A DNA stretch of 64,000 nucleotides, taken from Candidatus Omnitrophota bacterium (GTDB lineage: Bacteria; Omnitrophota; Gorgyraeia; Zapsychrales; JANLHA01). Under the pieces are notes generated by a model. That model made no database searches. It worked only from the letters and a program-made list of their open reading frames with translations, and was not told the origin of the DNA. A program made the translations under genes and the position numbers. Positions 14,052 through 36,300 of this stretch are shown here, piece by piece. Position 1 is the first letter of the stretch, and every line of letters begins with the position of its first letter. The stretch covers positions 79,411-143,410 of the forward strand of contig JAKQKX010000073.1 of NCBI GenBank assembly GCA_029560465.1. Direction: 5' to 3'.

Positions 14052-14173
14052 TTTTAGTTTATTAGATAACCAGAATGTTTTAAGCTAAATAAAGTATGGC
14101 TTACTTGAGGGGGAGAACAACTTTCGGGTAAGCCATACTTTATTTATAATCAGTTTGAACATTAAAATACTCT

Positions 14174-14566: not shown

Positions 14567-14586
14567 TTAAAAATTTTAATAAGAAT

Positions 14587-14925: not shown

Positions 14926-14950
14926 AAGGCTTTAAAATGAGGGTACGGGC

Positions 14951-15259
14951 ATGAAGTTATTACGAGGGCAAAGCACTTTGGAATATGTGACGCTTATTAC
15001 AATTATTTTAGGGGTATTCCTGGGGATGGGGACTTATTTTAAAAGAGGGGTTCAGGGGCGGTGGAAGGAATCCGTTGACGGAATGGGCGACCAATACGAC
15101 CCGCGGGTGACTAATACAGATATTACTGAGCGGGCGAGTGGGTTTTCCTCCACGCGTATTACCACAATCCCGGTTAACGCCGGGGTCTGGACAATGCGGG
15201 ATGACGATTCCAACATGCTTGAAGAAAAGTACGGGGCGTCAAGAGTGGCCGCCTATTAA
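14951..15259 (+). CDS. Flp-type pilin (pilin 7)
   Basis: 'LRGQSTLEYVTLITIILGVFLGM' then 'KRGVQGRWK'. Confidence 0.7.
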   Translation: MKLLRGQSTLEYVTLITIILGVFLGMGTYFKRGVQGRWKESVDGMGDQYDPRVTNTDITERASGFSSTRITTIPVNAGVWTMRDDDSNMLEEKYGASRVAAY

Positions 15260-15279
15260 TGAAACGTAAATTTTAAATT

Positions 15280-16995
15280 ATGAAATGTGACAAAGGAAAG
15301 ATTCGGAACCCTCGATTAGGCCAATCAGGGACGGAGTTGGCTATCTTTGGGGCCATGCTTATTTTTATAATCGGTTCCATTATTAAAGCGGGACTGCAGG
15401 TTAGTATGCTTAACAATATGCAATTACGAGCTTTGCGCCTTGCCTTGAGCGAATCTTACCGGACGTCCGAAGGCGAGTACATTGGTTTTGCTGGGGACGA
15501 AGGCGCGAACTCCCGGAACGTGGCGTCTATTGTTATTTTGGAAGACAGATTGAATGTGGATGCGGGTAAGAAATTCGGGTCTCGGGACAGGTTCCCGATG
15601 ACAGCCAGCGCCAGCGCTTCTATGACAAAAAATTTATTCCGTCCGACAGATTTTGGAGATCGCCGGGACCTGCCGGTGTCGGATATTTATATTAACGGCC
15701 AACGCTTTCCGTTATTAGGGGCGGATTTCAAAACAGTCACCCTTGCCAACGCTGACGGAAGCCGACCTGCCTGGATACCAGCGTGCAATGGCGCGGCACC
15801 GGCATATTTTAATTCCAGCGCCCCGCCCGCGAATCCTCCCTACGGAATGTGCTGGTGGAATAGCTGTGTTACTTATTCGAGTTGTGTTTATGTGGGATAC
15901 GGGGGCAATTATGAATTAGGTTACATGGGGGAATGTGTTATGGCAACAGGAGGGGCCGGCACGGGAGAGTATGATTTGGTGACAAATTCTGCGGGATGTT
16001 CGTTGCTGTTTACTATATCAGGCAATTATCCTAAGAGTAAAACGTGTTGTTTTGGGACCACATGTCAAAAAAATTGTAATAATCTTCCTCAAGACGTCCG
16101 TTTTGATTATGATTTTGACGGCGTATCTGATGTGCCTGCCGGGAGCCGGGACGGACAATTCTGGCAGTGGTTTTTAATCGCCGGGGTAGTTGACGGAACA
16201 GCGTTAACCTTGCCGTGGGGTGGCGTGCCGGGAATTTATGTTGATCCCAGCGGAGAGAAGGAATCGAAGAACGACAGCGTTGATGTTGACGGCGATTATT
16301 ATGAAGAGTCTATCCTTAGTTATTCTGCCTTGAGTTCTGGCGTTCTTCGAACCGTGAACGTGATTGACGGGGAGGAAGGAGATATGACCAGTTCATTCCT
16401 TTCGGATGCCCGTCAAGCCGGGGAATGGCGTTTTGCCGGGACCATCGGAGGCTCTTGTGGAGTTGAGCCGACAGGGAATTGCGTTATCGGATCAACGACG
16501 ACCGGAGAGAATGCTCTGGGGGTGTGTTCGAATTATAAATGCCTTGCTCGTTCAGTTGGTTTTTCTGAGGGCGCGCAGGTTTATACATTTACGGAATCTA
16601 ATCCAGGCCAAGAAACAGGTCAGGGAATGTATCTTCGGACGGAAGAAGGCCCGATTTTTAATGCCAACATGTCGCAATACACCCGGAGCACGGAAAGGCA
16701 TGACCAGCTAGATGTTGTGGAGCGGTTGGTTCAGCTTACCAAGGACACGGGCAGGTTTTGTGCCGACGATGTTAATCCTCGCGTCTGGGGAACTTCGGCG
16801 TGGGCGCGCGATAATGGGCTGTATGGAATTCAGAATCCGGTCGAAGTTTGTACCCGGCCCAGCACGGGAACCAATTGTTATATGGGGGGCGTCGCACAGT
16901 TGACATGTTTTGACAGGGACAACTTGATGTTGTTTGTCAGGAGCCGGATTGCCGATCTTAGAGGGAGGCGTTGGATAAGAAGATACGCCCCGTAA
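15280..16995 (+). CDS. TadE-like pseudopilin with large Cys-rich extracellular domain
   Basis: N-terminus 'GQSGTELAIFGAMLIFIIGSII' matches the TadE-family signature (G/XXXE[LF]A + hydrophobic helix). The 571-aa body has about 25 Cys in clusters (CWWNSCVTYSSCVYVG, CCFGTTCQKNC). Confidence 0.6.
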   Translation: MKCDKGKIRNPRLGQSGTELAIFGAMLIFIIGSIIKAGLQVSMLNNMQLRALRLALSESYRTSEGEYIGFAGDEGANSRNVASIVILEDRLNVDAGKKFGSRDRFPMTASASASMTKNLFRPTDFGDRRDLPVSDIYINGQRFPLLGADFKTVTLANADGSRPAWIPACNGAAPAYFNSSAPPANPPYGMCWWNSCVTYSSCVYVGYGGNYELGYMGECVMATGGAGTGEYDLVTNSAGCSLLFTISGNYPKSKTCCFGTTCQKNCNNLPQDVRFDYDFDGVSDVPAGSRDGQFWQWFLIAGVVDGTALTLPWGGVPGIYVDPSGEKESKNDSVDVDGDYYEESILSYSALSSGVLRTVNVIDGEEGDMTSSFLSDARQAGEWRFAGTIGGSCGVEPTGNCVIGSTTTGENALGVCSNYKCLARSVGFSEGAQVYTFTESNPGQETGQGMYLRTEEGPIFNANMSQYTRSTERHDQLDVVERLVQLTKDTGRFCADDVNPRVWGTSAWARDNGLYGIQNPVEVCTRPSTGTNCYMGGVAQLTCFDRDNLMLFVRSRIADLRGRRWIRRYAP

Positions 16996-17014
16996 GGATT
17001 ATAGGTGAATTGTT

Positions 17015-17314
17015 ATGAAAACACGGAAAAGGAATCAAAGGAAAAAGCTTTATAAATGGCCGGGACAGGTGTCTTTGGAGTTTATGTTTGGGATGATCGG
17101 TGTCGTTTTGCTTGTGGTCGGGATGATTCAGGTTTTTGCCTGGACAGGCAATGACCTGATGAAACGTTTTAACTCTCATGAAGCTCTTTTGGTTTCTCCG
17201 GTTGGCACTTCTCAACCTGCGGCTCCTTTAGAACAGGTCCGGCCGATGTTTTATTCGGTCACAAAAATAAACGCAACGGTTAATAGCAATATTTTTGGAG
17301 AGGAAGCTCCTTAA
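17015..17314 (+). CDS. small TadE-like pseudopilin
   Basis: 'WPGQVSLEFMFGMIGVVLLVVGMIQ' pilin-like N-terminus. 99 aa. Its 3' end overlaps the next ORF start by 20 nt. Confidence 0.45.
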   Translation: MKTRKRNQRKKLYKWPGQVSLEFMFGMIGVVLLVVGMIQVFAWTGNDLMKRFNSHEALLVSPVGTSQPAAPLEQVRPMFYSVTKINATVNSNIFGEEAP

Positions 17315-20300
17315 TTCTAAATTTATTACCCCGGGGGTCAAGTTGTTGCATGTTTTTTACAAAGGCGTAAGGCGAGTCCGAAGATGGCAACATAAAAAGC
17401 GGAATGCTTTTTTCTTTGTTCCCAACAACAGCGGTGATTCCACAAGAATGCCGCCTCGGCATGTTGCCGGGCAAGTCGGGCTGATCCTGATTCTGGCCGC
17501 GGCCATAGGGCTGATTTTATATGCGGTCACGATTAATATCGGCAGGATTTCTCAAGGCAAAACCTTGACTATTATTGCCGCCAACACGGCGGCATCCAAG
17601 ATGGCGTCGTTTATCGCCAGTTATGGCCAAATGCTTTTTATGACGTCTTTGGGGGGAGAAACAAAAATTTGTGCCTGGACCGGATTTTTAGTAAAGCTCA
17701 TTGCGGCCATTATTGTTGTGGTCATTGTTGTTATTTGCGCCGCTACCGAACAATGTGAGGGATGGGGGTTAGCCGCTGCGATTGTCGCGGCGGTTCTTGT
17801 TGTGGCTGCCGCGGTTATTGATGTCACAATAACCCAGCCGGGCATTACGTCCATGTGGAACAAAATGATGAAGGACTCGATGGGGCCGAAAGAAATGGCC
17901 GTGGAACTGGGGGTGCAAACCGCCTTGATGACAGCGGTGAATGACCCTGCCCAAATTCCGGATTTATTCGACTTTGACACTGACGGTTCTTTTGGCAATT
18001 TAGCGGACCCTCTTAATAAAACCACGGCCCCGGATTATATTTCCCGCTTTGCGTATTATTATACCCGCCGCCTTCAAGGTATTCCTGATTTGAATCTTAC
18101 GATCATTGATGACTTCTTGTCTGCGTTGACGGATTTCTTGTTTGGAGGCGATCCCAATCGCTGTACGGTTTGGGGGTGCGACACGGATGATTGGGGCCTT
18201 ATTGATCCCCTAGATTGCCTGTTAACTCCCGGGCACCCCTGTTGCCCGGCCAATCCCGTTGGGAACATGCGTTTCCCGGCCATGTGTGACCCCTGTTGCG
18301 TCATTAACGATCCAGACCTTCGGCCAGCGTGCTGTGCTACGGGAACTTGCGTGGAGGACGAGGGGTTTGCCGGCGGGGATCCAAACACATGTGATGAGAG
18401 AAGCCCTTACCACACCCCGCTTCCTCCCGCAGCGCCAAACGCAAGCTTGACGTACCCGTATATTTTTAGAGGCATAAATGAAAACTCCACGAACAATAAA
18501 AACAGTTCAGGCGCTTGGGTTCCGGCCAATATTTCTTTTCGTGAATGGCTCGGCTTTGACGACGAGCATCATCAATACGCCGTTAATCCGGCCCGGCCTA
18601 ATTGGCATTATTTAATTGACGGAACCGGGGCGAATTTAGACCACTCGCAGTTGATCCGTTCCGCTCCGTTGGAGTATGATTTTTATATGGAAGACGCAAC
18701 CGGTTATTATTTGAATGACGAGAGGCCGGGGATTTTTCCGTTTTTCTATAAACTGGCGGACTGGGGTATGGATTTACAGGCTTTGACCTATGGCGCCCTG
18801 ACGCCGGATCCGCCTGATCCTCATCCGGTCCGGGATAACCTTGAGTGCCATTTATGCGATGTAGACGGGATTGCCGCGGGCACGGTCCCTGCGGTTTGCG
18901 CCGGAATGACGTATCCTTCTGAAATTGGTGTTGCGCTTGAACTTCCCGAAACTCCGGATACAGCGCTTTATAGCGGCGGCTGGTGTGTGGATGCTGCGAA
19001 TACCGGAGCCGACGGCGACCCACCCCAGTTGTTGGACGTGGTCCCCAATATTGTTGATCTTTTAGCCGATGATGCTGTCTGCGCTCAGGATGTGGGCGGC
19101 TGGAAAAGAGGGGCTGATCAATTCTGTGATCCGCCTGACCAGTGGCCTTATATGGCCGAATGCATAAAAGCCGGTGGTCCTTCCGGCGGGGGGGGGCCAC
19201 CTTGCGTGGAGGTCGATCCCGTAAGTGGGACTTCTTGGCCGGTTGATTGTGCTTGCGGAACCGGCGGGGCTTTGCCTCCGACGCCTCCCGTAGACCGGAC
19301 GTTGGCCGCGAACAACTTTCAATATGTGACCACCAACTGGCCTGATGATAAATTAGATGATTTTATCTATGGATTGCCGGAATTCTATGAATGGGCGACA
19401 ACCCTTTTTGGCAAAGATAAGGATACTTTAGAAGACACTTTCGATGATTGGTATGAGGAAGCCGCTACTTGGATTGAAGCGCCGTGCCCGAGCGGTAATG
19501 CTGCGGATTGTGCGGGAAGTTGTACCGGAGACGTGGATGGCGGATACTGGTATGTCTGGCGCGATGATTTGGGCTCTTTCTATACTCCAATTGTAAATTG
19601 GCTGAACCCACCCGATGCGGATCTTTATGTTGGTTCCGGGTGTTTTACGAACAGCTCCGCAGACCCGGCGGTTTGGTGTGTTCCTCCGCCTCAAGCGGCC
19701 GCTAATAAATATGCGGACCCCACATATCTGGGTTTTCAGTCAGGATATAACGGGTTGGAATGCCCTGGAGTAAGCCAGGAGGAACAGGCGTCTTTTGACA
19801 TTAGCGCAGATGGCCGAGGCGACATTGAAGATGTTATTGCGTGTTTTAATTGGAACCTTTTTGATCCGGCTGAAGATCCGTCCGGGGCCCCAATTATTCA
19901 CCCTGTAACCGGGGCGCAGGCTGTAGGAAATTTTGAAAAATTTGAGGCGTGTAAGTGGGATTGCGACAATAATCCGGTTAATTCCATAAACAGCTGTCCG
20001 ATCTTGCCCAGGTCGCTGGTGCCGGGGTTTGATGCTTTAATATTTACGGTTCCAATGCCCGAAGCAGATTTGATCGCGTTAACATTGTGTTTAGGAACAG
20101 AATCGATTCCAACCTGTAATGATGATTGTTCGTCGTTGCCTGGCGGATATGGCATCCCCGCTTTTGTTCCAACGTCCGATAACGCGGCCCTTCCGGCGCC
20201 AGACACGTCTTTGTTGACCAATTTAAGGGCCCTGTATGCTTTTTGCGAGGCGAATCCAGCTTCAAGTCTTCCAAACCAGTGCCGGGACCAGGGGACAACG

Positions 20301-21341
20301 ATTGCTTGTGCCAGCCCCACCATTTTGTCAGACGCCTTAAACTGTTCCTGCACGTGGTACGGGTTACCGACGGATCTTTTGGGAACCTGTGGACAGCTTT
20401 GCGGTATTGGGGCGACCCCGTTTTTTGATGCCATTGAAACAGCCCTTGATGATAATATAGGCTCGTGCGGAGAAACTGATCCTGGAGAATGGAAAGATTT
20501 GTTAGACCAGAGCGTTTTAGCCGCGGGGAATCAGGCGATGAAAATGTCAAAACGCTTGAATTTGTTGGAGGGACGAGAGGAAGAGGCGATTTCGATAAGG
20601 AATGTGTTGTATAATGCGCTTCTTCATATCGACGCCTTTCTCACGGGCCCGGCCCAGGGGCTTATTGATGCTTGTAAGGCATGGGGGAATATTTATCCTC
20701 CGGCCACCACCTCTTTCGCCATTTATGCCTGGCAGGATCTCCCCAAAGATGTTTATAACACGATTCGGGGGGATTGGCATGTTGTTAAAGTGGAAGTTCG
20801 AACTCCGGGGCGGTGTAACGCCGCGTGTGGAACGGATCGATGGCCGTATATTGACACATACACCAAAAGCTGGGGGATGAAACGCTGTTATGAATTAAAG
20901 GAATGGACAGGCAGGGTCAAAGCCCGGGTGATCCGTTATGACGAGGATACTGTCGGCAGCCGGATACTTTTCCCGGATGGAACTCTATTATGGAAACCAC
21001 AATACTATCATCCGGAAGGGTCAGATCAGGATCCTACGGATTTGGAGCTGACCTGCGCTATTATGATTGATCCCAATATCGCCGCCCAGACATGGGAATG
21101 GGGGTGGAGGAGCGCTTTTATGGTTAATCAGACGCCGACAGCCAGCGCCACGCCACCTAGGGGGTCGCCCGAGTATTTGGATTGCTGGAATTTTCTGCAT
21201 GAAAGTTTGTTAAGATATGGTTATTCAACGGCGACGTGCGCTCAATATTTTCTAGGAGGCGGATCGGGGTACAGTGGAGACCAGGGGTTTCGTGTCCGTT
21301 TTGTGGAGTGTGATAACGCCTTTATTAGTGGAAATAATTAG
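17295..21341 (+). CDS. TadG-like large Cys-rich membrane-anchored protein (putative pilus-associated adhesin/tip protein)
   Basis: 1348-aa ORF. After an in-frame Met at 17448, 'GQVGLILILAAAIGLILYAVTINIGRISQGKTLTIIAANTAASKMA' resembles the TadG N-terminal domain (TM helix followed by D/N.GR...LQ..ADAAALA). Two further very hydrophobic helices follow. The ~1100-aa extracellular region has many Cys clusters (CCPANPVGNMRFPAMCDPCCV, CCATGTC). The true start may be 17448 rather than 17295. Confidence 0.55.
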   Translation: MERKLLNSKFITPGVKLLHVFYKGVRRVRRWQHKKRNAFFFVPNNSGDSTRMPPRHVAGQVGLILILAAAIGLILYAVTINIGRISQGKTLTIIAANTAASKMASFIASYGQMLFMTSLGGETKICAWTGFLVKLIAAIIVVVIVVICAATEQCEGWGLAAAIVAAVLVVAAAVIDVTITQPGITSMWNKMMKDSMGPKEMAVELGVQTALMTAVNDPAQIPDLFDFDTDGSFGNLADPLNKTTAPDYISRFAYYYTRRLQGIPDLNLTIIDDFLSALTDFLFGGDPNRCTVWGCDTDDWGLIDPLDCLLTPGHPCCPANPVGNMRFPAMCDPCCVINDPDLRPACCATGTCVEDEGFAGGDPNTCDERSPYHTPLPPAAPNASLTYPYIFRGINENSTNNKNSSGAWVPANISFREWLGFDDEHHQYAVNPARPNWHYLIDGTGANLDHSQLIRSAPLEYDFYMEDATGYYLNDERPGIFPFFYKLADWGMDLQALTYGALTPDPPDPHPVRDNLECHLCDVDGIAAGTVPAVCAGMTYPSEIGVALELPETPDTALYSGGWCVDAANTGADGDPPQLLDVVPNIVDLLADDAVCAQDVGGWKRGADQFCDPPDQWPYMAECIKAGGPSGGGGPPCVEVDPVSGTSWPVDCACGTGGALPPTPPVDRTLAANNFQYVTTNWPDDKLDDFIYGLPEFYEWATTLFGKDKDTLEDTFDDWYEEAATWIEAPCPSGNAADCAGSCTGDVDGGYWYVWRDDLGSFYTPIVNWLNPPDADLYVGSGCFTNSSADPAVWCVPPPQAAANKYADPTYLGFQSGYNGLECPGVSQEEQASFDISADGRGDIEDVIACFNWNLFDPAEDPSGAPIIHPVTGAQAVGNFEKFEACKWDCDNNPVNSINSCPILPRSLVPGFDALIFTVPMPEADLIALTLCLGTESIPTCNDDCSSLPGGYGIPAFVPTSDNAALPAPDTSLLTNLRALYAFCEANPASSLPNQCRDQGTTIACASPTILSDALNCSCTWYGLPTDLLGTCGQLCGIGATPFFDAIETALDDNIGSCGETDPGEWKDLLDQSVLAAGNQAMKMSKRLNLLEGREEEAISIRNVLYNALLHIDAFLTGPAQGLIDACKAWGNIYPPATTSFAIYAWQDLPKDVYNTIRGDWHVVKVEVRTPGRCNAACGTDRWPYIDTYTKSWGMKRCYELKEWTGRVKARVIRYDEDTVGSRILFPDGTLLWKPQYYHPEGSDQDPTDLELTCAIMIDPNIAAQTWEWGWRSAFMVNQTPTASATPPRGSPEYLDCWNFLHESLLRYGYSTATCAQYFLGGGSGYSGDQGFRVRFVECDNAFISGNN

Positions 21342-21362
21342 AAAAGTATTTAAGGACGAAAT

Positions 21363-21806
21363 ATGTTTCGGCAAAGGAGAAGTGCTCAATCTATATTGGA
21401 GTATATGACCTTGATTGTTTTTTTATTATCAAGCTTGTTTGTCTTTCAAGGTTATATTTTAAGGGGTTATTATGGAAGCTGGAAAAAGGCGGGGGATGCT
21501 TTTGGCTCAGGGCGTCAGTATGACCCCAGGCCTTTTGGGAATTATGGAGATGGCGGCGGGACTTTAGAATGTTTTTTTGATGCCACCCACTGTACGTCAG
21601 GGACCGGCCCGGCCCGGCCGTGTACGTTAATTAACAGATGGATTTCAAAGGCCTGTTATGATGCGACACCCTGTGATTGCACGATGCCAATCGGAACGAC
21701 GGGGTATATCACACAGTGTTTGCAGTGTTTAGAAAATTGTAGCGAGTCTGTAGCTGCGGGAGCGCTTTGTGGGGACGTGACGACATCGAGGGTTTTAATT
21801 GATTAA
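21363..21806 (+). CDS. Flp-like pilin with Cys-rich C-terminal domain (pilin 8)
   Basis: 'RRSAQSILEYMTLIVFLLSSLFV' Flp-type N-terminus. The 100-aa tail has 12 Cys (CTSGTGPARPCTLINRWISKACYDATPCDCTM...CLQCLENC). Confidence 0.55.
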   Translation: MFRQRRSAQSILEYMTLIVFLLSSLFVFQGYILRGYYGSWKKAGDAFGSGRQYDPRPFGNYGDGGGTLECFFDATHCTSGTGPARPCTLINRWISKACYDATPCDCTMPIGTTGYITQCLQCLENCSESVAAGALCGDVTTSRVLID

Positions 21807-21841
21807 TGATTAGGGGTTTATAAGGAGGCATAGGTTAAGCG

Positions 21842-22696
21842 ATGTATGTTTCTCTATTTTGTATATTTATATCTGCGACAATGTTTGGGTATTTTGTCAT
21901 TCCGTTAATTTATAATAAATCCGTAGAAGTTGGCCAAAAACGGGCGCATAAACTTTCTTCAAAACTGGACAGGGTTTTGCCCCGCTCCAAGGTTGAAAAG
22001 ATAACCCGCTTTTATATCATTGCTCCGATTGTTTTTGGAGGGGCTTGCTATATGTTTTTCCCGGAAGACCTGCGGCTTTTCGGTATAGGAATCGGACTGG
22101 TTTTCGGTTTAATTTTTCCAGGAGTTTATAACAACCTCCTTATAGGGCAAAACAGGAGGAAATTTGATGACCAGTTAATAGATGCGCTTATGATTATGTC
22201 AAGCTCCTTCCGAGGGGGGTTGAGTTTGGTTCAGGCCATGGAAGCCGTTGTGGAAGAGATGCCGGATCCGATAAACCAGGAATTTTCGATTGTTTTGGGG
22301 GAGAACAATATGGGGGTTTCTCTGGATGAAGCCCTTAATCATCTTTATAATAGGCAGCCTTCTCCGGCCGTGCAGCAAATGACAACGGCTATTTTGCTGG
22401 CAAGAGAAACAGGGGGGAATTTGCCCAGTATTTTTCAGCGGATTGTGAATGTTATTCGTGAACAAAAAAGAATAAAATCTCAGATAGACACTTTGACAGT
22501 TCAAGGAAAAATTCAAGGTGTTGTTATGTCGGCCTTGCCTATTATGTTTTTTACGATTATTTACGGAACGAATCCGACTTTCTTTGATCATATGTTTAAG
22601 TCCACGGTAGGGAGGGGCATGCTTGTTTATGCGGTTTTTTCGGAAATTTTAGGCGCCATTATGATTTGGAAGATTAGTAGTTTTAAAGATTTTTAA
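21842..22696 (+). CDS. tadB: TadB-like inner-membrane platform protein (T2SS-F domain)
   Basis: T2SSF-domain pattern 'LIDALMIMSSSFRGGLSLVQAMEAV...EFSIVLGENNMGVSLDEAL...TAILLARETGGNLPSIF'. Flanked by TM helices. Confidence 0.7.
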   Translation: MYVSLFCIFISATMFGYFVIPLIYNKSVEVGQKRAHKLSSKLDRVLPRSKVEKITRFYIIAPIVFGGACYMFFPEDLRLFGIGIGLVFGLIFPGVYNNLLIGQNRRKFDDQLIDALMIMSSSFRGGLSLVQAMEAVVEEMPDPINQEFSIVLGENNMGVSLDEALNHLYNRQPSPAVQQMTTAILLARETGGNLPSIFQRIVNVIREQKRIKSQIDTLTVQGKIQGVVMSALPIMFFTIIYGTNPTFFDHMFKSTVGRGMLVYAVFSEILGAIMIWKISSFKDF

Positions 22697-22734
22697 TAAA
22701 TCAAACAAAGCCTAACCTAAGGAAGAGGTATATC

Positions 22735-23625
22735 ATGTTAATGCTGACATTTGTTTTGACGATGTGTTTTTTGGCGGGATTTAGTTTTGTTGTTGGGCTT
22801 TTTCCGATGGAAATGGAGAGCCGGCCTACGTTAAAAGCTTTTGGATATGAGGTGGCCCCGGCAAAGAAGAAAAAGAATGCGACGTCCATGTTGCGTGCTT
22901 TAGCCATGTTTAATAAACCATTGTGTTCAGGGGGCCTTCGGAAGAGAATTTCAAAAGATTTATCTGTGGGGCATGTTAACTTGACGCCGGAAGAATTTTT
23001 CTTAATGAAGGAAATCGGTATTATTTTGGTGCTTTTGTTGACTTTTCAGATGATTCAGCCAGACATGATTCTTTTTTGGCTTTTTATGAGTCTTTCTATT
23101 GGTTATATGATGCCGGAATTTTGGCTTAAGGGAAAAATTAAAAAAGTCAAAGCTGTTATTGTGAAGGAATTGCCGAATGCCATTGATTTGCTTGGCCTTT
23201 GTGTGAATGCTGGGTTGGACTTTATGTTGGCTTTGAAGTGGGTTGTTGAGAAATCAACACCATCGGTCATGATTAACGAGCTTAATATCCTTTTGCAGGA
23301 AATCAACGTTGGAAAGACCCGCCGTGACGCATTAAAAGATTTGGCGGTAAAATTTGACCTTCCGGAAGTTTCTTCCTTTTCAAGGACGCTTCTCCAGGCA
23401 GATAAAATGGGGACCTCTGTTTCCGAAGCCCTGAATCTTTTGTCTGAAGACATGCGCCTTGCCCGATTCCGCAGAGGGGAACAAATGGCCATGAAAGCGC
23501 CTATGAAGCTGTTGGTGCCCCTGTTGTTCTTTATTTTCCCTGTTGTCGGAATTCTTGTCGCCGGCCCAATATTTCTGCAGTTTATTGAGGAGAATCCGTT
23601 GTCAGAATTGGGTGGGAAAAAATAA
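22735..23625 (+). CDS. tadC: TadC-like inner-membrane platform protein (T2SS-F domain)
   Basis: 'LPNAIDLLGLCVNAGLDFMLALKWVVEK...ELNILLQEINVGKTRRDALKDLAVKFDLPEVSSFSRTLLQADKMGTSVSEAL' T2SSF pattern. RBS AGGAAGAGG. N- and C-terminal TM helices. Confidence 0.7.
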   Translation: MLMLTFVLTMCFLAGFSFVVGLFPMEMESRPTLKAFGYEVAPAKKKKNATSMLRALAMFNKPLCSGGLRKRISKDLSVGHVNLTPEEFFLMKEIGIILVLLLTFQMIQPDMILFWLFMSLSIGYMMPEFWLKGKIKKVKAVIVKELPNAIDLLGLCVNAGLDFMLALKWVVEKSTPSVMINELNILLQEINVGKTRRDALKDLAVKFDLPEVSSFSRTLLQADKMGTSVSEALNLLSEDMRLARFRRGEQMAMKAPMKLLVPLLFFIFPVVGILVAGPIFLQFIEENPLSELGGKK

Positions 23626-23971
23626 CCCCTGTTTGGAAAATGAGAAGCAATCCCGTTTTTGATCAATTATCAAAAAGTGTCTTATAAAAACGGTGTTTTT
23701 GTGAAATTTCTAGAAAACCTTGAGTTGTCCATTCTGATTTGTCCATTCTGAGAAAATTGTGTTTTTAATAATTAAATAAATATAAAAATTAAGCAATATT
23801 CTAAAATTATTTTTCAAGCGAATAGAAATTTTTAAGATGTTTTTAAACCATTAAGTTTTTTTTGGAAGCGTTTTCTTGTTTTTTCTCCTGATTCTCAAAA
23901 GACAATTTCAAAAAATATTTCTTTTGGGCTGTAACTATCTGAAAATAAACAACATTTTCTTTAAAAAAAAA

Positions 23972-24009: not shown

Positions 24010-24162
24010 CTTATAGGGCAAGTGGTAAAGGGTTGCCTTATAAGAATATCCTGAAAGAGGGCCAACAAAATAATGAGATGCACATCATTTATTAAGCTCT
24101 TCAGAGTATTTGAGTAAACTACTGGGCTACCAAGAGACCACTTGGTAGCTTTTTGTTTTTAA
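24010..24162 (+). ncRNA. structured leader / candidate small RNA: 5' 12-bp hairpin plus 3' terminator-like hairpin with T-tract
   Basis: Hairpin 1 is CTTATAGGGCAA-(11 nt)-TTGCCTTATAAG at 24010-24044 (one G-U). Hairpin 2 is GCTACCAAG-agacca-CTTGGTAGC immediately followed by TTTTTGTTTTT (~24127-24162). Both lie between the predicted promoter and the giant gene ATG. Confidence 0.4.
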
Positions 24163-24326
24163 AAAATGGCAAAAATTATAAAAATTATAGGAGGAGCAGA
24201 AAAAAAACTAAATAGTTTTTTGTTGAATTCTTTCAGCTTGTTTCAAAAAATTCCTTCCACTTGTATTCGAGGGCACCAGTTAGCCCATTGTTTCGTTAAT
24301 AATCTGGTTAATTTCTAGAAAAATAT

Positions 24327-27300
24327 ATGAATTTTAGATTGGACAAAAAACTAGGTGCCGAAACTGTCTCTAAAGGTATATTAGAGAATAGGTTAATTTC
24401 TGCGTCTGAAAGTATTGTCCAAAATGAATTAAAAGAAGAGTCTTTTAAAAGTAGATTTAAGTCTTGGATTCGGCTTGTTGCCCTTGTTGTTGTTTTAATT
24501 TTCCTTCCAGAGCAGGTTAGCTGGGCTTTCAACTACAATCCCGCTGTTCTTTGGGGACACTCGTCTTCGTCTGTTCAGGTGATTGACTTGGATTCTCCCA
24601 ATCCCCAGGTTTCTCAAGAAGAAATGATGGCGATACAGCTTTCCTCCGGTGTCGCCAATCTTTTGGAACAAATTGAGAACAAAGAAAATGCACAAATTAA
24701 ACTCGGGCTGTCTTCAGATATAAATAATTCTCTTTCTAGTGAGAAAAGCGTTTTAATTTCTGCGAAGAGGAAAATCACTCCGGATTATGTCCAATCTGTT
24801 AAATCTTGGATTCGTAATCCTAATATTCACCCATTTAATTGTGGTGTTTATGCTTTAAAAGATTTGTTAGATGGCAACAAAATTTCAACGTCTTTGGCTG
24901 AAATTGCTGTGGCAACTCTTTCCGTCGATCTTTTAAATAATATTATTGAGCCTGGAGAAAAATTCTTAAAAACTTCTCTTTTTGCGATTGAAGAAGTTGC
25001 CCGCGGATATGGTCTTAATGTTCAGGCCGTCAAGGTTGACACGCAAGACATCCTTTATCTGAAAACTCCGTTTATTGCCAATTTTGGTTCGGAACACTTT
25101 GTGACTGTTCGGTCCGTTGATGCTCAGAATGTGTACTTCTCTGATATTGGCAAGCAACAGTCTATGCCACGAGATCAATTTAAAGAGAAGATCAGCGGTT
25201 TTGTTCTTGCTGTCAATTTGGATCGCCAAGAAGATATGGAATACGAACCCATTTCAGACGCCATGAAGGTGTTTGTTTGGGGTAATAAATGGATAGACAG
25301 ATCAGATGATTTGCCCGGGTTGTTGTCTGGGGCGGATGTTTTTGCTGCTGTAATTTCCATGGTGGTTCAGATTGTCATCGCTTATATTATGGGTGGCCCG
25401 CTTGGAGTTATTATTTCTTTAGCTTCTTCAACTTTTGGTTCTGCCGTAGGGGAAGCGTATTATGTTAACTGTGTGAATGATGGCGGAGATGATTGTGAAA
25501 GCAATGCGTTTATTTTAAGCACAGCTATTACAATTGCTGTTTCAGTAGGTTTGAATTATATGGCCGGGATAGGATCTGAGGCCGGAAATGCAGCGGGCGA
25601 GGCTGCCGCCAGTGGTGGGGAAACCGCATTGGAGTCTACTGCCAGTACCGGCGCAACCAGCTCCCTTAGCACAGCTTTACAAAATGCGGCAGTTGGTGCG
25701 GCAGTTGGTGCGGCTCTCGGGTGGGCCGTTGCGAAGATGACGGGAAAAGATGCTACCAAGGCGGCGCTTATTGGTGGGTTAATTGGAGCTGCAGGAGGAT
25801 TAATTGCTGGTTATGGTGGGTTTGGTGAGGGGATTCAAAGCGCTTGGCAGAGTTTGATAACAAAACTTCAGAATATATGGTCTAGTATTAAAGGGTTTTT
25901 TAATAAGGTTTTTGGCGGCGGCGCTGCATCTACGGCAACGAGCACTACTTCCACAACGAGCATGACAGTGACTCAGCGGTTGTGGGATATTGCGAAGGCC
26001 TTTGCCAAAGGCTTTACGGTCGGGATGATTAAGGCTTATGTTCAAGTTAAAATTGCCGAATTTTTAGAAGAGCATTTGGATATTGATAGTGAAATTTTGA
26101 AATCGGTTTTAGTTGGGTTGATTTCTTCTTTGGCTGCGGATTTGGCGGTGGGTGTTGTTGCCATGGGATTGGACGCGGCCGCAGATGCGTTGTTTGACAA
26201 GCCTGCCAGTGGTGATACCGAGGATTTGGGCTGGCGTGAAATGTTGGGCATGAAAGATGACTCGGAAGCGTCAAAGAAACAATATGCCAATCAGCAGGTT
26301 GAAAAAGCGCAAATTAAGGCAAAGGCTGAAGGGAAGGGGCCGCTTACTGGTGATCAAATTGCGCAAGTTAAAGCGGACGCAATGAGTAGCTATAGTTCTT
26401 TTAAGTTAAATCTAGCAGACATGGGAATGATGGCCCTTCAGCGGTTAGCAGGGGGGATGGGGAGTTTTATATTAAGATATATATTTAAAGATAAATTCGA
26501 CCCAAGCTCCATGATGTCTCAAATTCTTGGCAATTTTGGGTCTTTAATCGGGATGACGCTGTTTAATGTGATCGCTTACGGAGACACTTGGGGAACAACA
26601 TATGATATTAAGAAAGAAAAAGACGAAAATGGAAATGATGTATATACTTATGAAAATGTTGGAACGAAAGAGAACATAAAATCTACTACAACTACAACCG
26701 AAGAGGGGAAAACGGTAACGAGTCATTATTCCGGAACGCATAATGTCACCATGCTTGATACGGATGGTAATCTAGATAACGGTTATGAAAAAGCGTTTGT
26801 TCAGGGATCTTTTTTGGGAACGATTTGGCGGGGTGCGGTTCAAACATTGGTATCGATGTTGTTGGCCCTTGCCCTTTTTGGTAAAGAAGATTTTTCAGAA
26901 GCTGAAGGGGCGGATGGGAAGACGCGAGACAAGGATGAGCGAGCCAAGCAATTTTGGACGTGTAGTTTAATTTTCTTAGGGTCTGTTCTTACGCAGGGTA
27001 TATTCGCATCAATAGCCGGAATGTTTAAAACGTCTGATTTGGCTGCTATAGGAACAAAAGATTATGAAAACCAACAAAAAGCAGGCGGAAAAACAGACGG
27101 GGAAGACAAGCAAAGCATAGGTTCTATTTTCTTGAATGTAACAGGAAATGCTTTTCAAGAGTTTGCTTCTAATTTAGTGGGCGATTGGGTTGGAACAGCC
27201 CCCACTGGCGGAAAGTTTGCTAACTTGTCTTCCTTTGGCACCTATGTTGAATCTATGCAAAAAATGGGCGGCATTACTTTAGATACTGTGTTGAAGGCCC

Positions 27301-30300
27301 AGGAAAAAAGAGAAGAGCTTGAAGAGAAAAGAGAAGAAGCAAAAGAGCAAATGGGTGGATATAATGCTCCGGAGGAGTGGTATGCCTGGGGTTGGGATGA
27401 CAGTATGGCAATTCCAGATGACCTGAAAGACGATGCAGAGAAAACAGATGAAGACATGGCCCAGGAAGCGGGGTTGCAGTTTTTGATTATGGCGGAAGAT
27501 AACCGGGTCGGTTTCTGGGTAGACAATTTTTCCCAGGTGGCGGCGATGTCTGCCATTACTAATTTTAAAAATAGTTTTGAATATGTAGCGTCCGCAATTT
27601 CACACGATTCCGGATACATAAAATTTTACCGGGATTTTCTTGGTTTTACCTTCCGTCCCATTGCCAAAGACGGGTCTTTTCTTGGGAAGAATTACATTCA
27701 ACTAAAAAGAAAAACAATCGGAGAGGATTTTGATCCCGAAAAAGAGGCGACAGAGTTGGTTGCCAAAATAGAAGAAGCAAAGGAAAAAGGCGACATAGAA
27801 GCGGACGGTACCCTGCTTACTATCGAGATGGAAGCCGACGTGGACTCGGCAGAAGATGTGGATGCTTTGGTTAGTTTTATGACGCTGGTAGAGGAAAAGC
27901 TGTCTGGAACAGCGGAAGAATCAAAGGGTGAAAAGGGTGATGTGCTTATTAAGGCGAAAGTGTTTTCCTCTAAAACTCAGGAAGAGGGGGGCACCGAAAG
28001 TCTTATTGCTGGTTACGGATCAGGGGATATAAAGCTAGTAGCCGGTTACGGAGCGGGAAGTCAACAGACAAGTGATTTTATGGTTGTGCCAAGACAACAT
28101 ATTCTTATTGGGGCAAATAGTGCGGACTCCGCAAACTATATTTCTTACAATTTAGTCGGAGCGGGAAATAAGGGAAGAGGCTGGGTTCAGACGGATACAG
28201 CCACAGGGGATGTTTATGAGGGGTTCCTTTCGTATAATCCATATACAGGACAATATTCTTATGATGGCCGGGCGTTCACGGTTGAAGAAGCGAATAAATT
28301 AGGCTTGGATCCTTCTATAATGAAGATTATCGCTAAGAAAGAAGAAGGAGATAAATCAGGAGGGGCGGAAGTAGATCTTTTTGGTGAAGGTTTTACGAAG
28401 TCGAAAGAATTGTCTATTATGGAAACAAGCCCCTCGGAATCGGAAAACTTTGGTGGAGAAGCGCAAACCGGTTACAATCGCTTGGTCGCGCTTGGTTTTG
28501 AGGATTTGGGGTTTGCCATTTATGATAAAGATGCGGGAACAGACGGGCAGGTTGATGGTGGGGGGAGTGTTTATCGTAGAGTTTTACAAGGCGGAGTTGA
28601 AGGGTGGCGGGCTAGGGCAGACGCAAGGGCGGAATATGCTGACCAGATGCGTGAGGCCAAAATTAAGCGTATTATTAACTGGCTGGTTCCGTTTGTGGAT
28701 ATTTGGGGAGAAGGCGAAATTCCGAATCCGGAAAAGGTTGTTTCTCCCGACAAGATGATTGAGGAAACGGTGAGTGCTATGCCGCTGACACAAAAGCAGC
28801 GGCAAGGTCAGGCAGAGGCAAAATTTAAAGCTGCCCAGTCGACGCCGATTCGTGTTAAGAATGCTATGTTAGAGAAGATAAAAGAGTTGGATGCGCAAAA
28901 AGACGCTGATCAGATAACGGAAGAAGCTTATACGACAGAGGTCGCTAAGTTGAACGCTTCCATTGCTAAGATAGATGAGCTTTTAAATGTTGACCCGGAG
29001 CAGGGTGTTTATGACACCTTGGCCACTGTTCCTGTTTATGCTGGTTCTTCTAAGCACAGATATATGCAGCTTTTTGAAGCCGGCGTATTTCTGGGAAATG
29101 CAGAAACAAATAAGTTAATAGGAGAATCGACAACTTCGTATGCAAAATATGAAAACGGAATAATCCAAGGTGGCGTTGTTGGTTGGGTTTTGGGAGATGG
29201 AATTGTTAAAAATCAGGGTGAAGTTACTTCTTTAGTAGGGAAAGCAGAAAATGTCCGCGCTGTTATGAAACAACTGGGTTTGGATAACTTTATTAATATG
29301 TCTGAAGAAGAGAAAAAGCAGGTTACGGATAAATTAATTGCGGCGTTGACGGAACAAGGTCAGGACGGGCTTTTGGCGAGCGTGAAGATTGGCTTTGAAG
29401 GCGGGGCCTTGGTTGCTGATAGTCAATTTGAAGGCGAAGGTGAGACCGACCCGGGAACCAAGCTTAGAAAGAGGATGTCAGCTGCGGATGTTGAACTTTT
29501 GAAGGCGCTTATTGCCACTGCCGCCTTAACGAGCGGATTGTCGGAAGAAGAGAGAATCAAGGCGGTAGAAGAGCTTTCTGTTGCCTTAAATGACGTGCAA
29601 AATATGGGTGATGTGGAAGCCCGGCTTATGGATATGACGACCCAGGATAATCCGATTAAAGATTTTCTGATTAACGCCTTGGAAAACACCTATGCTGGAA
29701 GTCCTACCAAGAATGTTACGATTAATGCTATGAATAAGTCTATGACAGAAGATGGGTGGGATCAGTATACCGCCAAAATGGAGGCGGGAACTAAACTAAA
29801 AGCCAGGGCAGAGGCGATTATTTCCGTTATTGAAGAGGTGGGTTTGGGGGATGTGCTTGGTCTTTCCGAAGAAGAAAAGAAAACCAAGGGCGCGGAACTT
29901 ATTGCCGCTTTACAGCAGGCGGGATTATTAGATAAAGATCAAAAAGTTCCAGACCTGTTTGATGCAGCCACATTGCAATCCATGAAGCTTGCGCTTGGAA
30001 CAATGTTGTCTGGCGGGGTTGCCGATGCAATTGTGGCAGATATGTTAAATCATCAGATATTGAATACCCTTATTAATGTGTTTACCAGCGGCCTTTCTGA
30101 AGAAGATAAAAAGAAGGCCGCTGTTTCTTTGCAGGGTGTGGAAACGATATCTGCTCTTAAAGATGCGGTCGTGAATTTTGCCACGAAAGAACCCCTGGCA
30201 GATGTCATCCGCGCTAGTGAAATTGATGATCTTGTCTTCAGTTACCATGGGGCGCTTGATGATGCCGGGAACGTAAGGTCAGATTTTGCTTTTAATTTGG

Positions 30301-33300
30301 ATGCCTATAATCCTGCCGCAACCCTAAAATCCCAGGCAAATGTATTCCTCCCCGGAATTGGTTTAGCACAAATATTAATCAGTGCTTTTGGCGGCGAATT
30401 GAGCGAAGAGGAAACGTCTTCACTAGTGCAGAATATGGCGAAAGTTTTTATAAATGGCCTTTCAGAGGTGGATAAAAAGAAGGCAGCTAGTGCTTTTAAA
30501 GATGTGCAAACGTTTGATGAACTTAAAAATGCGATTATGGGGTTGTCTTCGGGTGTAAGAAAAATTACCTTAGATGAAAATCTTTCTCCGGTTGACCCTG
30601 GATCTGGGCTTATGGTTCGCTCGATTTCCCAGGGAGGGCAGCTCTCTTTGATGAATTTATTACAGGGGGATGTTTTCTCCTCCAAGCTGAAGGGCCGGGC
30701 AGACACCCTTATGTCTATTATTGAAAGTGTCGGGTTGAATGATCTGGCGAACCTCTCTTCAGAGGATAAAAAAGCCAAGAGAGATCAGTTGGTCACCGCC
30801 CTGAAAAATGCCGGGCTTTTTGAAGGAGAAGGAAATGTTTCTTTGTTTGACCCAGCGGTTTTAAATGCCTTGGTTGCCTTGGGTTTTATGTCGCCCGAAG
30901 CCGTTGATACCATAGCATCCGGTATTATGGATACTGAAATGACGAATTTGCTGGTGAATGCGGTGGTGTCTTCCGGATTAACCGAAAGAGACTCAGAAAA
31001 GGCCGTTGCTGCTGTTAAAGGGGTGAAGACCATTGAGGAACTAAAAGCCGCCACAGAAGGTTTTTCTGGTTTTGAGGGCACGTCTTCTTTTATTGCGAAG
31101 GCTATTTATGGGGTTGATTCCCGCACCACGGAAGAATTGCCAAACGGACAAACCCGTGAAATTGCTAATATATCAGGCGGGGTCTTTTCCACCATCGCCG
31201 CTAAGTCTGAGGATGCGCGGTTGTCTAATGTTGTGAGCCTGATCACCTCTAACAAAATTTCAAACGAAGAATTGGAAGCCGCTTATAAAGCAGATTTACC
31301 TGTTATTAAAGGCGATAATTTAAATGACGAGCAAATAAAAATAAATGAAAGGAACGCTTTGGTCAATTCCCTTGTGGATCAAATGGAAGCCATGGGGATT
31401 TCTTTAATTGATTTTGTCAAAGCGGTTCAAACAGAAGGAACTTTATCCCAGCAGCTCTCCACAATGACTGTTGATACCAAAAAGCAGGCTTTGGCCGTTG
31501 CTTTGGATACAATTAAGGCGGAAAAAATAACGGCGGATGAACTGAAATCAGCGTATGAAGGCAAAGCTTCTTCTAAAGATAATAACGGTGTAGAACAAAA
31601 AGAAAGCAGCAGAACGAAATTAATAAAAGCCATTGTTTCTGATTTAAGAGACGTGGGAGCGACTTTTGCCGATGTGGCGGGGCTTTTGCAGGTTGCCGAA
31701 GGCCAAGATTTAAATCAATCTATTGATGCGAAAGCCCAGGAGCTTTTTACAAGGGATTCCTCGGTCTTCAAGGCCGCAGGGTTGATGACCAGTGGTAGAT
31801 CTTTCATTAATCAAGAAGGGCAATTGCAGTTTTCAGATGCATCTGTTTTAGGAGATTATATCCGCTTGCGGCAGGCTGGTGGGCAGGGTGGAACGGAACA
31901 GCCAGAGGGTTCGGTTGTCCGAAGCAAGGTTCTTGTGGGAGGGGTTGCTGATCTTTATACCGCGGATATTGGCGGTGCGCAGTTCCTGAAAGACACATCC
32001 TCCGGCGTATTTGAGATGAGTCCTTTTGTTATCCGTATGGATGAATTTGTTGCCCGTAATCCTAAAGTTGCGGTTTATGGTGATGAATGGGGCGCTCATC
32101 TTGCCAATGATAAAATAGAAGTGAAAAACATGGTTCTTAAGATTTCGGAAAAAGACGGAATCAAAGCCATTGATCATTATCTCACAGGACAAGAAGGCCA
32201 AATGCGTTATACGGGGGACACGCATTTAGCGGATATTATTAAGATTTCAAAGAAGGACTTGGTTAATGATGAAAAGTTGCAGCAGGCGGTAAAATATTTG
32301 GGTTTAACCATACCGGAAGAAGGCGATTTTTCTCTAGAACAAAAAGTGCAAATTCAGGGATATCTTGATGGGTACAGGGTGTCTATTTCCAGCAAGTCGG
32401 GTGATTTGGGATCTGAAGAGTGGGCTTCTAAAGTTCCTGCTGATGAAATATTGCAGAAATTCCTTGGCGGGAGCGGCATGCTTACGGATATGCCGGTTGT
32501 GACCCAGTCTGTGATTAAATACGGGGGAAATGGTGTAGAAACCATAATTGAGCAGAAAGAAATTAAGTTTGAATATAGCGATGACTCGGCTTCCAAAAAA
32601 AGCCGGCTGTCTATTGATGAAGACGGGTCGTTGCGGGTTGTTTTGGCGTCTCCGTATTCCATGCTGAAAACTGAAATGAAAGTTGATGGGGAAACAGGTG
32701 TGCCTTATATAGAGAAGATGAATGAGAAAGACCCTGTTTACCTTTTGGCCAGAATACCCGGGTTGGGGAATGAAGTCCTTGCTCCGAATAATCCTGGTGA
32801 GCAAAATGATAAAAAGACCGTAAGCTCCTATGATGTTATGCTCACTAATATTATAAAAGTCGGCGCCGCGGAATATGCTGGGCAAATGATGGATGTGTAT
32901 GCTGGCAACATCAATGGCGATATTGAAACCGAAACATACACGGCCAAAGGGAAAGATGGGGCTGTAAAGGAGACATACGCGGCTCCTCTTCCGGCAGATA
33001 AGAATGACCGTTATCGGAGAATCAGTTTTCTGGCGATGCCGTTCCTATACGGGAATTTTGGCACTAAAGATAACCCGGTAGGCATGAATCAATCCCTCCA
33101 TAGTTTTTATATTGAAAACAATGTTTCTGATATGGTGGCCGGAGCAACAGCGGCATATTCTACGCAAGATCCAACCGAAAAAGGGCCTGGAACGGTTTCG
33201 ATGAATTCCAGGCAAAGAATTTTGTCCAGGGCCGGGCTTTTGCCGATTAATCGTATTTTATCATCAAACGGCACTATCGTTTCGCGTTTTCTGGGGAATG

Positions 33301-36300
33301 GGGCTTTAACTATTATTGACGGCGTGGTTTCCACGGTGGATGGAAGTCAAACATACTTGATTGCGGAAAGCGTCCCGGGCGTAGCAAGGGATTTGAAAAA
33401 AGGTGAAGAGTTTCAATTAGATGTTTTGGAATCTTCGGATGATCGCGATGGTATGAAGCAGTCTTATGCGTATGATTATAAAGTGACAGATACCTGGGAG
33501 CAGATCGGCTTCGAAGAAGGCGGGAGACAGGAGTATGTGGCAGCGCATCGTTATACCGGACGCACTAACGATGAGACAAATAGGGGAAAAATATTAGTGC
33601 TGGGCGCCGCCTCTGGATTGATGACAGCGAAAGGGAAAGAAAAAGGGATCCCTGAATATCTTAAATTGAACAAAAATGGCGCCACGGTTTATGGGGATTT
33701 TGAGATATTCGCCGATGAACAAACCCCGGCATGGGTTAGAGAGCATTACAAAGATGTCGGCGGCGTTATTACCTTCCAATGGGCGGCTGATGGAGATATT
33801 GCGAGCAGCCGCATGAAGGCTTCGGAAGGGGATATGTTTGTCGAAGAGAATATTTTTAGTGTTTATAATATTGATAAGTCGCTCGCTGAGGCTGTTGAGA
33901 GTTTAGGCGGGTTGGAGAGTTTGGATGCGAGGGATGCCGATAAAATCGTGGCGGCATTGAAAAAAGCAGGCGTTAAGGGTGTAACTAAGCAAGGCTTACA
34001 ACTTGTTATGCGCGGAAATTCGGCGGGTATTGAAGCGAAGCTGAAGAACGCCGGTATTAAAGTAGAAGAAGGTAGCGTACAGGCCCCCGCTTTAACGGGT
34101 TCTGGTTTGTATGAATCGGCTACAGTGTATTATGATTCGGTCTTAAAAGGATTCAAGCACCGTGCGACAGATTTTGTTGTTGATGGTAAAAATATAGAGT
34201 CTGGACATGTTTTTGCTTTGGGTCAGCCAACGGCCGAAGGAATATATGTTATGACAGGGGCGACTCATATCCCGGGAGTTGCCGGAAGCTATTATGCCAT
34301 TGGTCCGACCAAGAAAGAAGCCGGGTTGCCTACACATTTTTATTTTTATGATTCTGAACGTGAATATAAAGCAGATGGCAAGCTGTATAAATCCCCAGAT
34401 TCAAAAGGTTTTGTGGGTATTACGATTAGCCCGGACGGCCAGAAGGAAGGCGTTAATACAAAAAGCATGTATATGCAGGTTGGCGCTGATGCCTCGGTTG
34501 GGTTGGGCAAGTCGTATATGAGGGGTTTATTCGACTTGGCTGCCAAGAGGGAGCAGTTTGATGAGAGCAAAAATATAACAGCAGAACAGGCAGTGGCGAT
34601 TGAGAACGGGATGGAGGCTGCGTTTCAAGACTATTCTAAATTAAGTGATGCCGAGAAACAGGGCATGAGTTTTATGGATTATATTAAGCAAAAGAAAATG
34701 CCCGCGAGTTTTTATCTTTCCTTAATTGCCATGGCAGAGGATGCGGAAATTAAAGAGTCGCACGGGGATTGGCCGGAAATGCAAAAACGGTCGCAGTCAA
34801 AAACCCCAACTTTTAAATCCGAGTTAGCCAATAAGTATTTTGGCAGCCTTTCTCCTGAAGCTAAAAAAGAACTTTTATTCAGGGCTTGGAAACGAGAGGA
34901 AGAGAGGCAAATCCCGCTGTTTTTGGCTAATGACGAATATAAAGAGAATTTTGGGAGTAATGGGTTTACTCGGTTTATTGCCAAGGTGGGTTTAAGACAG
35001 TACCAAGCGCAGGAGGCGCAGTCTGCGGCTTATACTGGTGATTTGATTGAATCGTTAGAGGCAGCAGGGGTAAGTACTATAGTAAACGGGATGACGAGTA
35101 AGGAAGAGATTGCTAAAAGCAATGATTTTCTTATTAATTCGGTTTTAGCTCCGAAACAAACTGAATTATGGCATGGAACAGGAGCAAAAGGAGAGAAATT
35201 TAATATTTATGAGAAACTTTACGGCGCGCAAAAACATGTGGCTTATGTTGATGCGGCGTTTGAAGGAGAGATGCGTTTTATTAGGGACGGAACCTGGGGC
35301 CCTGCTAATTTGACTTTTGGCATAGGAGACAAAGACGGGGATGGCATCCCAGAGGTCTTGGCTCGTATTATTGGCGGATCAGTGGACGGCACCCCGGCAG
35401 TTTTCCTTACGGATGATTCTGGGCCGCAAGGCGGCTTGTTAAGAGATAGATTTGTACGAACCTCTTATATTGATGGAGCATTACAAGTTACTAAGAGCGG
35501 TGGATGGGCGTTTAATGTGATTTCTGGGAGTGCTGTTTTACCTAGTGATTATGGGACTTTGGCGAAAACAGGCGGATTGAACCCGAATTCTTTGATAACC
35601 GGTTTGGGGCTTTCTGATTACAGGGCTGGCCTGATCAATGGTGCAGGGAAAGCTGACTCGCTTCAACAACTATCCCCGGCACAGTTGTTGAAAGTCATGT
35701 CTCTGTTTTCTCAAAAAACGTTAGTGACGGATCTCCTTACACCAGAGGAAGTCGGTAAAGATAATAAATATGTTGGCTCCATCGTTGCTCAATTTGGAGA
35801 CACATCCAAAGGATTTTCTTCATTGATGCTTGAATCGGCCGGGTTTTTCCAGCTTGTTTCCACATTAGGAGAAGGACAGATAGTCCCTGCGAATGAAGCT
35901 CTTGCAGCAGAGGCTGTTTATGACTTGCTTTTGAATGACGATTATGGGGGAGGGTATCAATATTCTTTTCAACAAAATAAGCTTGGCGCTATTATTATGC
36001 CAACCACCCTTTCATCGAAACAAGTTGTGGATGAACTTAAGGCACAATCCAAAGAAGGGGTTCTTGTTAAGTCTGAGACCGGCATGGTTTTTCTTGTTTC
36101 CCCGGAGGAGTTTAAGAATGGACAAAATAGGTATGAAAAGGGGAAGAAAAAAGGAATAGTTGTAAAAGATATAAAGACAGGAAAGGTCGCCATAATTGAT
36201 AATGACGACATGATGACCGCGTCAGATTTTTATGTCAATGGGGTAATTAATGACTATAGAATTGGCTCGGAACGCGTAGATGGAAAATGGAAAGAAATTC

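Follow-up and report, generated by a model that had tools for sequence, protein, structure and literature searches.

A conserved N-terminal C39 peptidase domain between two hydrophobic helices in a giant Omnitrophota protein encoded downstream of a Tad/type II-like secretion locus

The stretch of DNA considered here (the window) comprises 64,000 nt of a Candidatus Omnitrophota bacterium genome (contig JAKQKX010000073.1, positions 79,411 to 143,410 of the forward strand) and contains the 5′ part of a giant gene preceded by genes for a secretion system. The giant open reading frame (ORF) opens on the + strand with the ATG at 24327, an in-frame stop sitting 5 codons upstream, and is still open at the end of the window. 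Given at least 13,224 stop-free codons at 46 % GC, the frame cannot be explained by chance. Its product begins with a module in which a C39 peptidase domain lies between two hydrophobic helices. Omnitrophota giant proteins are among the largest predicted in any organism; few of their parts are both conserved and recognizable, and the N-terminal protease, being among these, offers a practical entry to how such proteins are made, inserted and possibly cut. The features on which the text relies are as follows, in window coordinates and with amino acid (aa) positions in the giant protein.

3626–23625 (+): Tad/type II-like secretion locus, assigned with Pfam and from pilin leaders read in the ORFs
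24327–64000 (+): giant ORF of at least 13,224 aa, from ATG 24327 with no stop to base 64000
24327–24464 (+): N-terminal tail, aa 1–46, predicted cytoplasmic; variable in homologues save for two motifs
24465–24509 (+): hydrophobic core of the first transmembrane helix or signal peptide (TM1), aa 47–61 (WIRLVALVVVLIFLP), by Kyte–Doolittle hydropathy and an AlphaFold helix at aa 44–68
24507–24557 (+): motif PEQxSWAFNYNPxxLWG next to the membrane, aa 61–77, conserved across 65 sequences
24612–24806 (+): family-specific N-terminal extension of the peptidase domain, aa 96–160; predicted local distance difference test score (pLDDT) 80–90
24807–25226 (+): C39 peptidase core, aa 161–300, by Pfam and Foldseek; pLDDT 84–96
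24840–24842 (+): codon of catalytic Cys172, present in 65/65 sequences and aligned with LahT150 Cys27
25095–25097 (+): codon of catalytic His257, 65/65, inside the block aligned by Pfam
25143–25145 (+): codon of Asp273, 16 residues after the His; Asp in 64/65, Glu in one
25272–25322 (+): post-domain motif FVWGxKWxDxSxxLPGL, aa 316–332, conserved in homologues
25338–25394 (+): second hydrophobic helix (TM2), aa 338–356, closing the protease-bearing loop; Kyte–Doolittle mean 2.37

Translation of 24327–25230 reproduces exactly every string quoted in a preliminary description of this DNA, with WIRLVALVVVLIFLP at aa 47–61, NCGVYALKDLL at aa 171–181 and EHFVTVRSVD at aa 256–265. In the last two strings that description had recognized the Cys and His contexts of a C39 peptidase-like domain, and both profile and fold bear this out. 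Pfam PF03412 (Peptidase_C39) matches aa 216–297 on profile positions 45–129 of 133 with 42.8 bits (E 5.8e-11; gathering score 22 bits), and a precomputed PF03412 label is carried by 28 of 31 homologues. NCBIfam gives partial matches only, to the peptidase ends of ATP-binding cassette (ABC) transporters of the peptidase-containing type (PCAT). AlphaFold, given 26 homologues, modelled aa 95–320 with confidence (pLDDT block means 80–96), and the best 27 Foldseek matches of this model in the Protein Data Bank (PDB) are all C39 or C39-like domains. The top match is LahT150 (6MPZ; E 1.3e-6, target TM-score 0.73); 6MPZ, PCAT1 and ComA together span E 1e-6 to 1e-4 and target TM-scores of 0.68–0.74, and further matches are the toxin 9L5U and the HlyB C39-like domain (3ZUA, 7SGR). 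A family profile run against PDB sequences found 6MPZ alone, aligning LNCG of the family with LECG, which holds the nucleophile Cys27 of LahT150. The region from about aa 96 to 320 is thus modelled as a C39 (papain-like) peptidase domain. Around 140 of its columns align to solved C39 domains; the extension of about 65 residues falls outside them and is modelled as a helix (97–115), a beta-hairpin (123–128/140–145) and a second helix (152–163). When a single sequence was searched against the PDB, designed armadillo proteins came out on top; each matched stretch was non-significant, and an armadillo-repeat identity was rejected, profile and fold both giving C39.

The catalytic residues of LahT150 are Cys27, His101 and Asp117, and an oxyanion role for its Gln21 is debated (PMC6363468). 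The equivalents of the three catalytic residues here are Cys172, His257 and Asp273, and the spacing from His to Asp is 16 in both proteins. All three are invariant in 26 database homologues of 36–83 % identity. An alignment of 65 sequences, one from the window and the others from 64 species-representative genomes, keeps Cys172 and His257 throughout and Asp273 in all but one; W161, D201, K215, E256 and F258 likewise never vary, and N171 is present in 64. Cys172 is moreover the sole Cys within aa 1–336. Neither a Pfam assignment to an unrelated fold nor loss of the Cys or His in any of the 65 sequences was seen. Since the catalytic Cys, His and Asp are conserved, the domain is almost certainly an active enzyme rather than a Cys-less C39-like domain.

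The tail ahead of TM1, which had been described as Lys/Arg-rich, is only mildly basic: aa 1–46 hold 9 K/R against 7 D/E, and K+R make up 20 % of residues compared with 10.7 % protein-wide (binomial P ~0.05). A basic cluster beside the helix is real, the basic character of the tail being concentrated in the membrane-adjacent KSRFKSWIR. Conservation within the tail is limited to FxSRFxxWIR next to the membrane and to the first six codons (M-x-x-R-L-D). TM1 has a 19-residue Kyte–Doolittle mean of 2.08. All 47 long homologues are predicted to have it, and most of them show another hydrophobic segment some 270–330 residues past the first. Five K/R lie in the 18 residues up to the start of the TM1 helix and none in the ~30–32 residues after its end, the first downstream being K119. 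In the motif after TM1, position 65 is S/A/C and position 67 A/S in 64 of 65 sequences each, so that, by the −3/−1 rule, S65-W-A67↓F is a possible signal peptidase I site. Because this conserved site comes after it, the TM1 helix may be a cleavable signal peptide instead of a permanent anchor. The proposed signal-anchor is broadly right, in that the hydrophobic helix with basic residues on its N-terminal side is real. The K/R before TM1, the lack of K/R until K119 and the conserved small-x-small site suggest that the protease domain is most likely held in a loop of about 275 residues, from TM1 to TM2, at the periplasmic face of the inner membrane.

Among GTDB species-representative genomes, 67 carry the module; most of these bear the label Omnitrophota/Omnitrophica, and many others are entered as ‘uncultured Planctomycetales’. 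The named database homologues are all from Omnitrophota/Omnitrophica metagenome-assembled genomes. In 61 of the 67 genomes it heads a very long ORF that outruns the fetched DNA, at up to ~3,700 aa. Searches of 50 %-identity clusters returned 201 matches at E≤1e-30, with lengths of up to 7,820 aa, and these nearly always begin within the first ~120 residues. The locus upstream encodes a Rotamase_2 peptidyl-prolyl isomerase, RcpC, a secretin, a TadZ-TadA-like ATPase, TadG-like large proteins and two T2SSF proteins, together with at least seven Flp-like pilin genes ahead of the giant gene. Counted over the 53 loci with at least 3 kb of upstream sequence, the order p571-p99-p1348-p147-TadB-TadC-giant is kept in 50.

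This architecture has already been described for Omnitrophota giant proteins, and the present result is a rediscovery. A 2023 preprint by West-Roberts et al. reported C39 domains near signal peptides in such proteins, and the same upstream locus of Rotamase_2, rcpC, gspD/E/F and small class III signal-peptide genes (10.1101/2023.11.21.568195). The window agrees in having an ORF that exceeds 10,000 aa, in the N-terminal C39 domain beside a predicted signal peptide and in the upstream genes (isomerase, RcpC, secretin, GspE/GspF-like and small class III signal-peptide genes, all at 3626–23625). It differs in nothing essential; a SecA DEAD-like domain, which most members of this group contain, was not seen at E≤0.001 in the 13,224 aa that lie in the window, beyond which the ORF runs on. 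In a 2026 preprint on long proteins of Omnitrophota, one of the architecture clusters is defined by PF03412 and has 24 proteins (10.64898/2026.06.07.730766). What is added here is conservation at the level of residues, the bracketing of the C39 domain by TM1 and TM2, negative tests for double-glycine sites and counts of synteny. A C39 domain outside an ABC transporter, which the preliminary description had held to be notable, is not unusual and has precedents in these giants (10.1101/2023.11.21.568195), in FapD (PMC5557850) and in StbD/Cpe1 (10.64898/2026.05.07.723447, PMC12136450).

On balance, it is probable that the module starts with a short tail in the cytoplasm, followed by a signal-anchor or signal peptide and then by a catalytically competent C39 protease held on the periplasmic side between TM1 and TM2, which carries out limited cutting outside the cytoplasm. 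The orientation and the endopeptidase function are the parts of this reading that we infer. A membrane-tethered C39 endopeptidase would then make one or a few cuts, either in exposed segments of the giant protein itself (e.g. for release or activation) or in proteins of the co-encoded secretion/pilus machine. Its working mode would resemble that of FapD, a periplasmic protein needed for secretion of the Fap amyloid, whose catalytic Cys is required for secretion and for which no canonical GG target is known (PMC5557850). Both have a catalytically intact C39 domain that is extracytoplasmic (here by prediction) and encoded with a secretion system, and neither has a canonical GG substrate. However, FapD is a small free-standing secreted protein, and the likeness is one of working mode only; with 12.7 bits against a cut-off of 330 for the NCBIfam C39_FapD equivalog, sequence similarity is negligible. 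A bolder version, which we regard as rather unlikely in full, is that the periplasm-facing C39 domain serves as a dedicated maturation protease of the Tad-like machine and the giant protein, cutting a giant-protein loop or a TadG-like protein at a site other than double glycine and thereby activating an apparatus for attachment or predation. If this were true, the module would be a FapD counterpart tethered to the membrane, and its specificity would be new among C39 peptidases.

Several points weigh against the periplasmic endopeptidase. The giant protein shows no excess of double-glycine sites over shuffled sequence: full leader patterns number 5 compared with 2.7±1.6 in shuffles, core patterns 34 compared with 28.8±5.2, and GG dipeptides 100 compared with 94±9. 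A conserved GG/GA/GS site beside the C39 domain was not found among 47 homologues, and none of these sequence searches yielded a substrate. To our knowledge, all structurally characterized transporter-borne C39 domains are cytoplasmic. The orientation of the domain here comes from simple charge and hydropathy rules, and the helices after TM2 number anywhere from 2 to 8 in crude predictions, so that most of the protein may lie on either side of the membrane. Finally, the Gln six residues before the catalytic Cys (Cys−6) is not conserved, this position being Asn166 in the window and N/S/D/E/G/A across the 65 sequences. This last point carries little weight, because the LahT150 study itself questioned the oxyanion role of the Gln (PMC6363468).

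The preliminary description had further proposed that the domain processes the giant protein itself or a partner with a double-glycine leader, and for this no sequence support was obtained. Besides the chance-level counts above, self-cleavage at LPGLLSGA↓D just before TM2 was considered and rejected, as G-[GAS] is present there in just 13 of 47 homologues. No credible GG-leader ORF was found among 219 ORFs in the 24 kb upstream, where matches fall only in pilin membrane segments or in spurious ORFs. The leaders of the pilins end in G/A↓Q-S/T-x-x-E-Y; this is the site of a prepilin peptidase, at the cytoplasmic face, and not a C39 site. The specificity of this domain need not be for classical double-glycine leaders. 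The options are narrowed: the enzyme is probably active, probably extracytoplasmic and probably does not cut the giant protein at classical double-glycine sites.

The alternatives are ranked below the periplasmic endopeptidase. The one that survives best, although we consider it unlikely, is polyprotein processing, in which the C39 domain would divide the giant protein into separate polypeptides by cuts at many internal positions, as West-Roberts et al. proposed (10.1101/2023.11.21.568195). The toxin StbD-CT lends it some plausibility, as its C39 domain auto-processes the large CdiA-like protein that carries it (10.64898/2026.05.07.723447). StbD-CT and Cpe1 (9L5U; PMC12136450; 10.64898/2026.05.07.723447) resemble the present case in placing a C39 fold on a very large protein that is not a transporter; they differ in being C-terminal toxins delivered to other cells with an immunity partner, whereas the domain here is at the N-terminus and tethered to the membrane, with no apparent immunity gene. 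Against polyprotein processing stands the chance frequency of GG-leader-like sites over 13,224 aa. Topology also speaks against it. At a stricter hydropathy threshold six helices are predicted, and past aa 900 there is only one weak hydrophobic segment. With six helices and the N-terminus inside, the remaining ~12,000 residues, with two GGDEF stretches and an S-adenosylmethionine (SAM) methyltransferase domain, would be cytoplasmic, placing most of the giant protein across the membrane from the protease and beyond its reach. GGDEF and SAM-methyltransferase domains need GTP and SAM, which are cytoplasmic substrates.

Less probable again is an arrangement like that of the PCATs, in which a cytoplasmic C39 domain would remove a double-glycine leader and hand its cargo to the following helix cluster for export. 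The nearest relatives in sequence and structure are indeed transporter C39 domains: the PCAT/AMS transporters (LahT150 6MPZ, PCAT1 4RY2/6V9Z, ComA 3K8U) share the fold, the Cys/His/Asp triad and its His-to-Asp spacing of 16. A helix cluster, partly glycine-zipper-like, also lies downstream of the domain, and SecA-like ATPase domains have been reported in related giant proteins (10.1101/2023.11.21.568195). In contrast to these transporters, the giant protein has a hydrophobic helix with a basic cluster on its N-terminal side ahead of the domain, the extension of ~65 residues, no ABC transporter fusion and no conserved Gln at Cys−6. Its domain is predicted to be periplasmic by our inference from charge and hydropathy, while theirs is cytoplasmic and at the extreme N-terminus. 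No match to ABC_membrane or ABC_tran (Pfam) was obtained across the 13,224 aa, nor was a SecA domain, and no GG-leader ORF or other double-glycine substrate is evident nearby.

An inactive C39-like domain serving as a tether or chaperone, as in HlyB, is very improbable. HlyB is among the structural matches (3ZUA, 7SGR) and shares the fold, and the unconserved Gln at Cys−6 would suit such a role; domains of the HlyB type, however, are without the catalytic Cys, whereas here Cys and His are invariant and the Asp is kept in 64 of 65 sequences. It is scarcely credible that the C39 domain stands in for the Tad prepilin peptidase and removes the leaders of the upstream pilins, for although it is the only peptidase seen in the locus and no A24 prepilin peptidase was found among the Pfam-scanned proteins of window positions 1–24326 in an otherwise complete Tad-like set, the pilin leaders end in K/R/S-G/A↓Q-S-T-x-E-Y and have no Gly at −2, their sites lie at the cytoplasmic face while the C39 domain is predicted to be periplasmic, and the gene for a prepilin peptidase may lie in another part of the genome.

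In the giant protein, more than 100 residues after TM2, in aa 338–470 (25338–25740, +), are without Lys or Arg; the segment is rich in Gly, Ala and Ser and contains glycine-zipper-like stretches, with a weak match to Pfam Gly-zipper_YMGG (E 0.0086). The SAM-methyltransferase domain is at aa 8793–8921 (50703–51089, +), and the better of the two GGDEF stretches at aa 9618–9731 (53178–53519, +), both by Pfam. Pfam matches are absent from the 4,600 aa encoded by 25527 to 39326 and from the last 3,224 aa, and a search with the family hidden Markov model found no second C39 copy in the 13,224 aa, leaving a single one.

In the upstream locus, at least nine small genes carry Flp/Tad-type class III signal peptides (12768–15259, +; 17015–17314; 21363–21806), their products having a short basic leader, then G/A↓Q-S/T-x-x-E-Y/F, then a hydrophobic helix. 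The secretin (5536–7479, +) has an N-terminal T2SS-T3SS_pil_N domain, the PF00263 domain and a C-terminal TonB_C domain (PF03544), an unusual fusion. A 720-aa protein (7659–9821, +) joins a ParA/MinD-like domain of the TadZ/CpaE type to a T2SSE ATPase of the TadA/CpaF type. A 94-aa ORF (10192–10476, −) with four CxxC pairs, zinc-ribbon-like, is located between a DUF192 gene and a gene for a 567-aa protein with no Pfam match.

A 50-codon ORF at 24166–24318 (+) starts with MAKIIKIIGG↓AEKK and stops 8 nt short of the giant gene. The possibility that it encodes a substrate was considered and rejected. The ORF is open in the two closest relatives (L001 and L002) and absent beyond them, and its substitutions show no preference among the codon positions (11/9/12 and 17/21/20). 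Because it is without codon-position bias and missing outside these two relatives, it is probably an untranslated leader. A terminator-like hairpin of 11 bp followed by a T-run is present at 24124–24151 (+), ~175 nt upstream of the giant ATG, with a conserved element TTGCAT-17-TATAAT upstream of it. The hairpin is kept in both relatives, an A-to-G change on the 3′ arm preserving the pair as G-U, and hairpins like it are present in 18 of 62 upstream regions compared with 2 of 112 coding controls. It could be a leader attenuator or simply the end of the Tad operon. Rfam gave no match in the gap preceding the giant gene.

The 1 kb before the giant gene is also enriched ~14-fold in a 14-nt motif, AATGTCCAWTCTGA, over 68 loci (1.54 vs 0.11 per kb; 48 loci). 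The motif is usually paired, with 14–24 nt between copies, and located 500–700 nt upstream; in the window it occurs at 23726–23749 (+) and at 24336–24345 (−). Its reverse complement overlaps codons 3–6 of the giant gene (the ‘RLD’ of MNFRLDKK), and in at least 13 loci the offset is +10 each time. Given this fixed offset, the first residues of the protein may owe their conservation to a DNA operator or to long-range RNA pairing and not to constraint on the protein.

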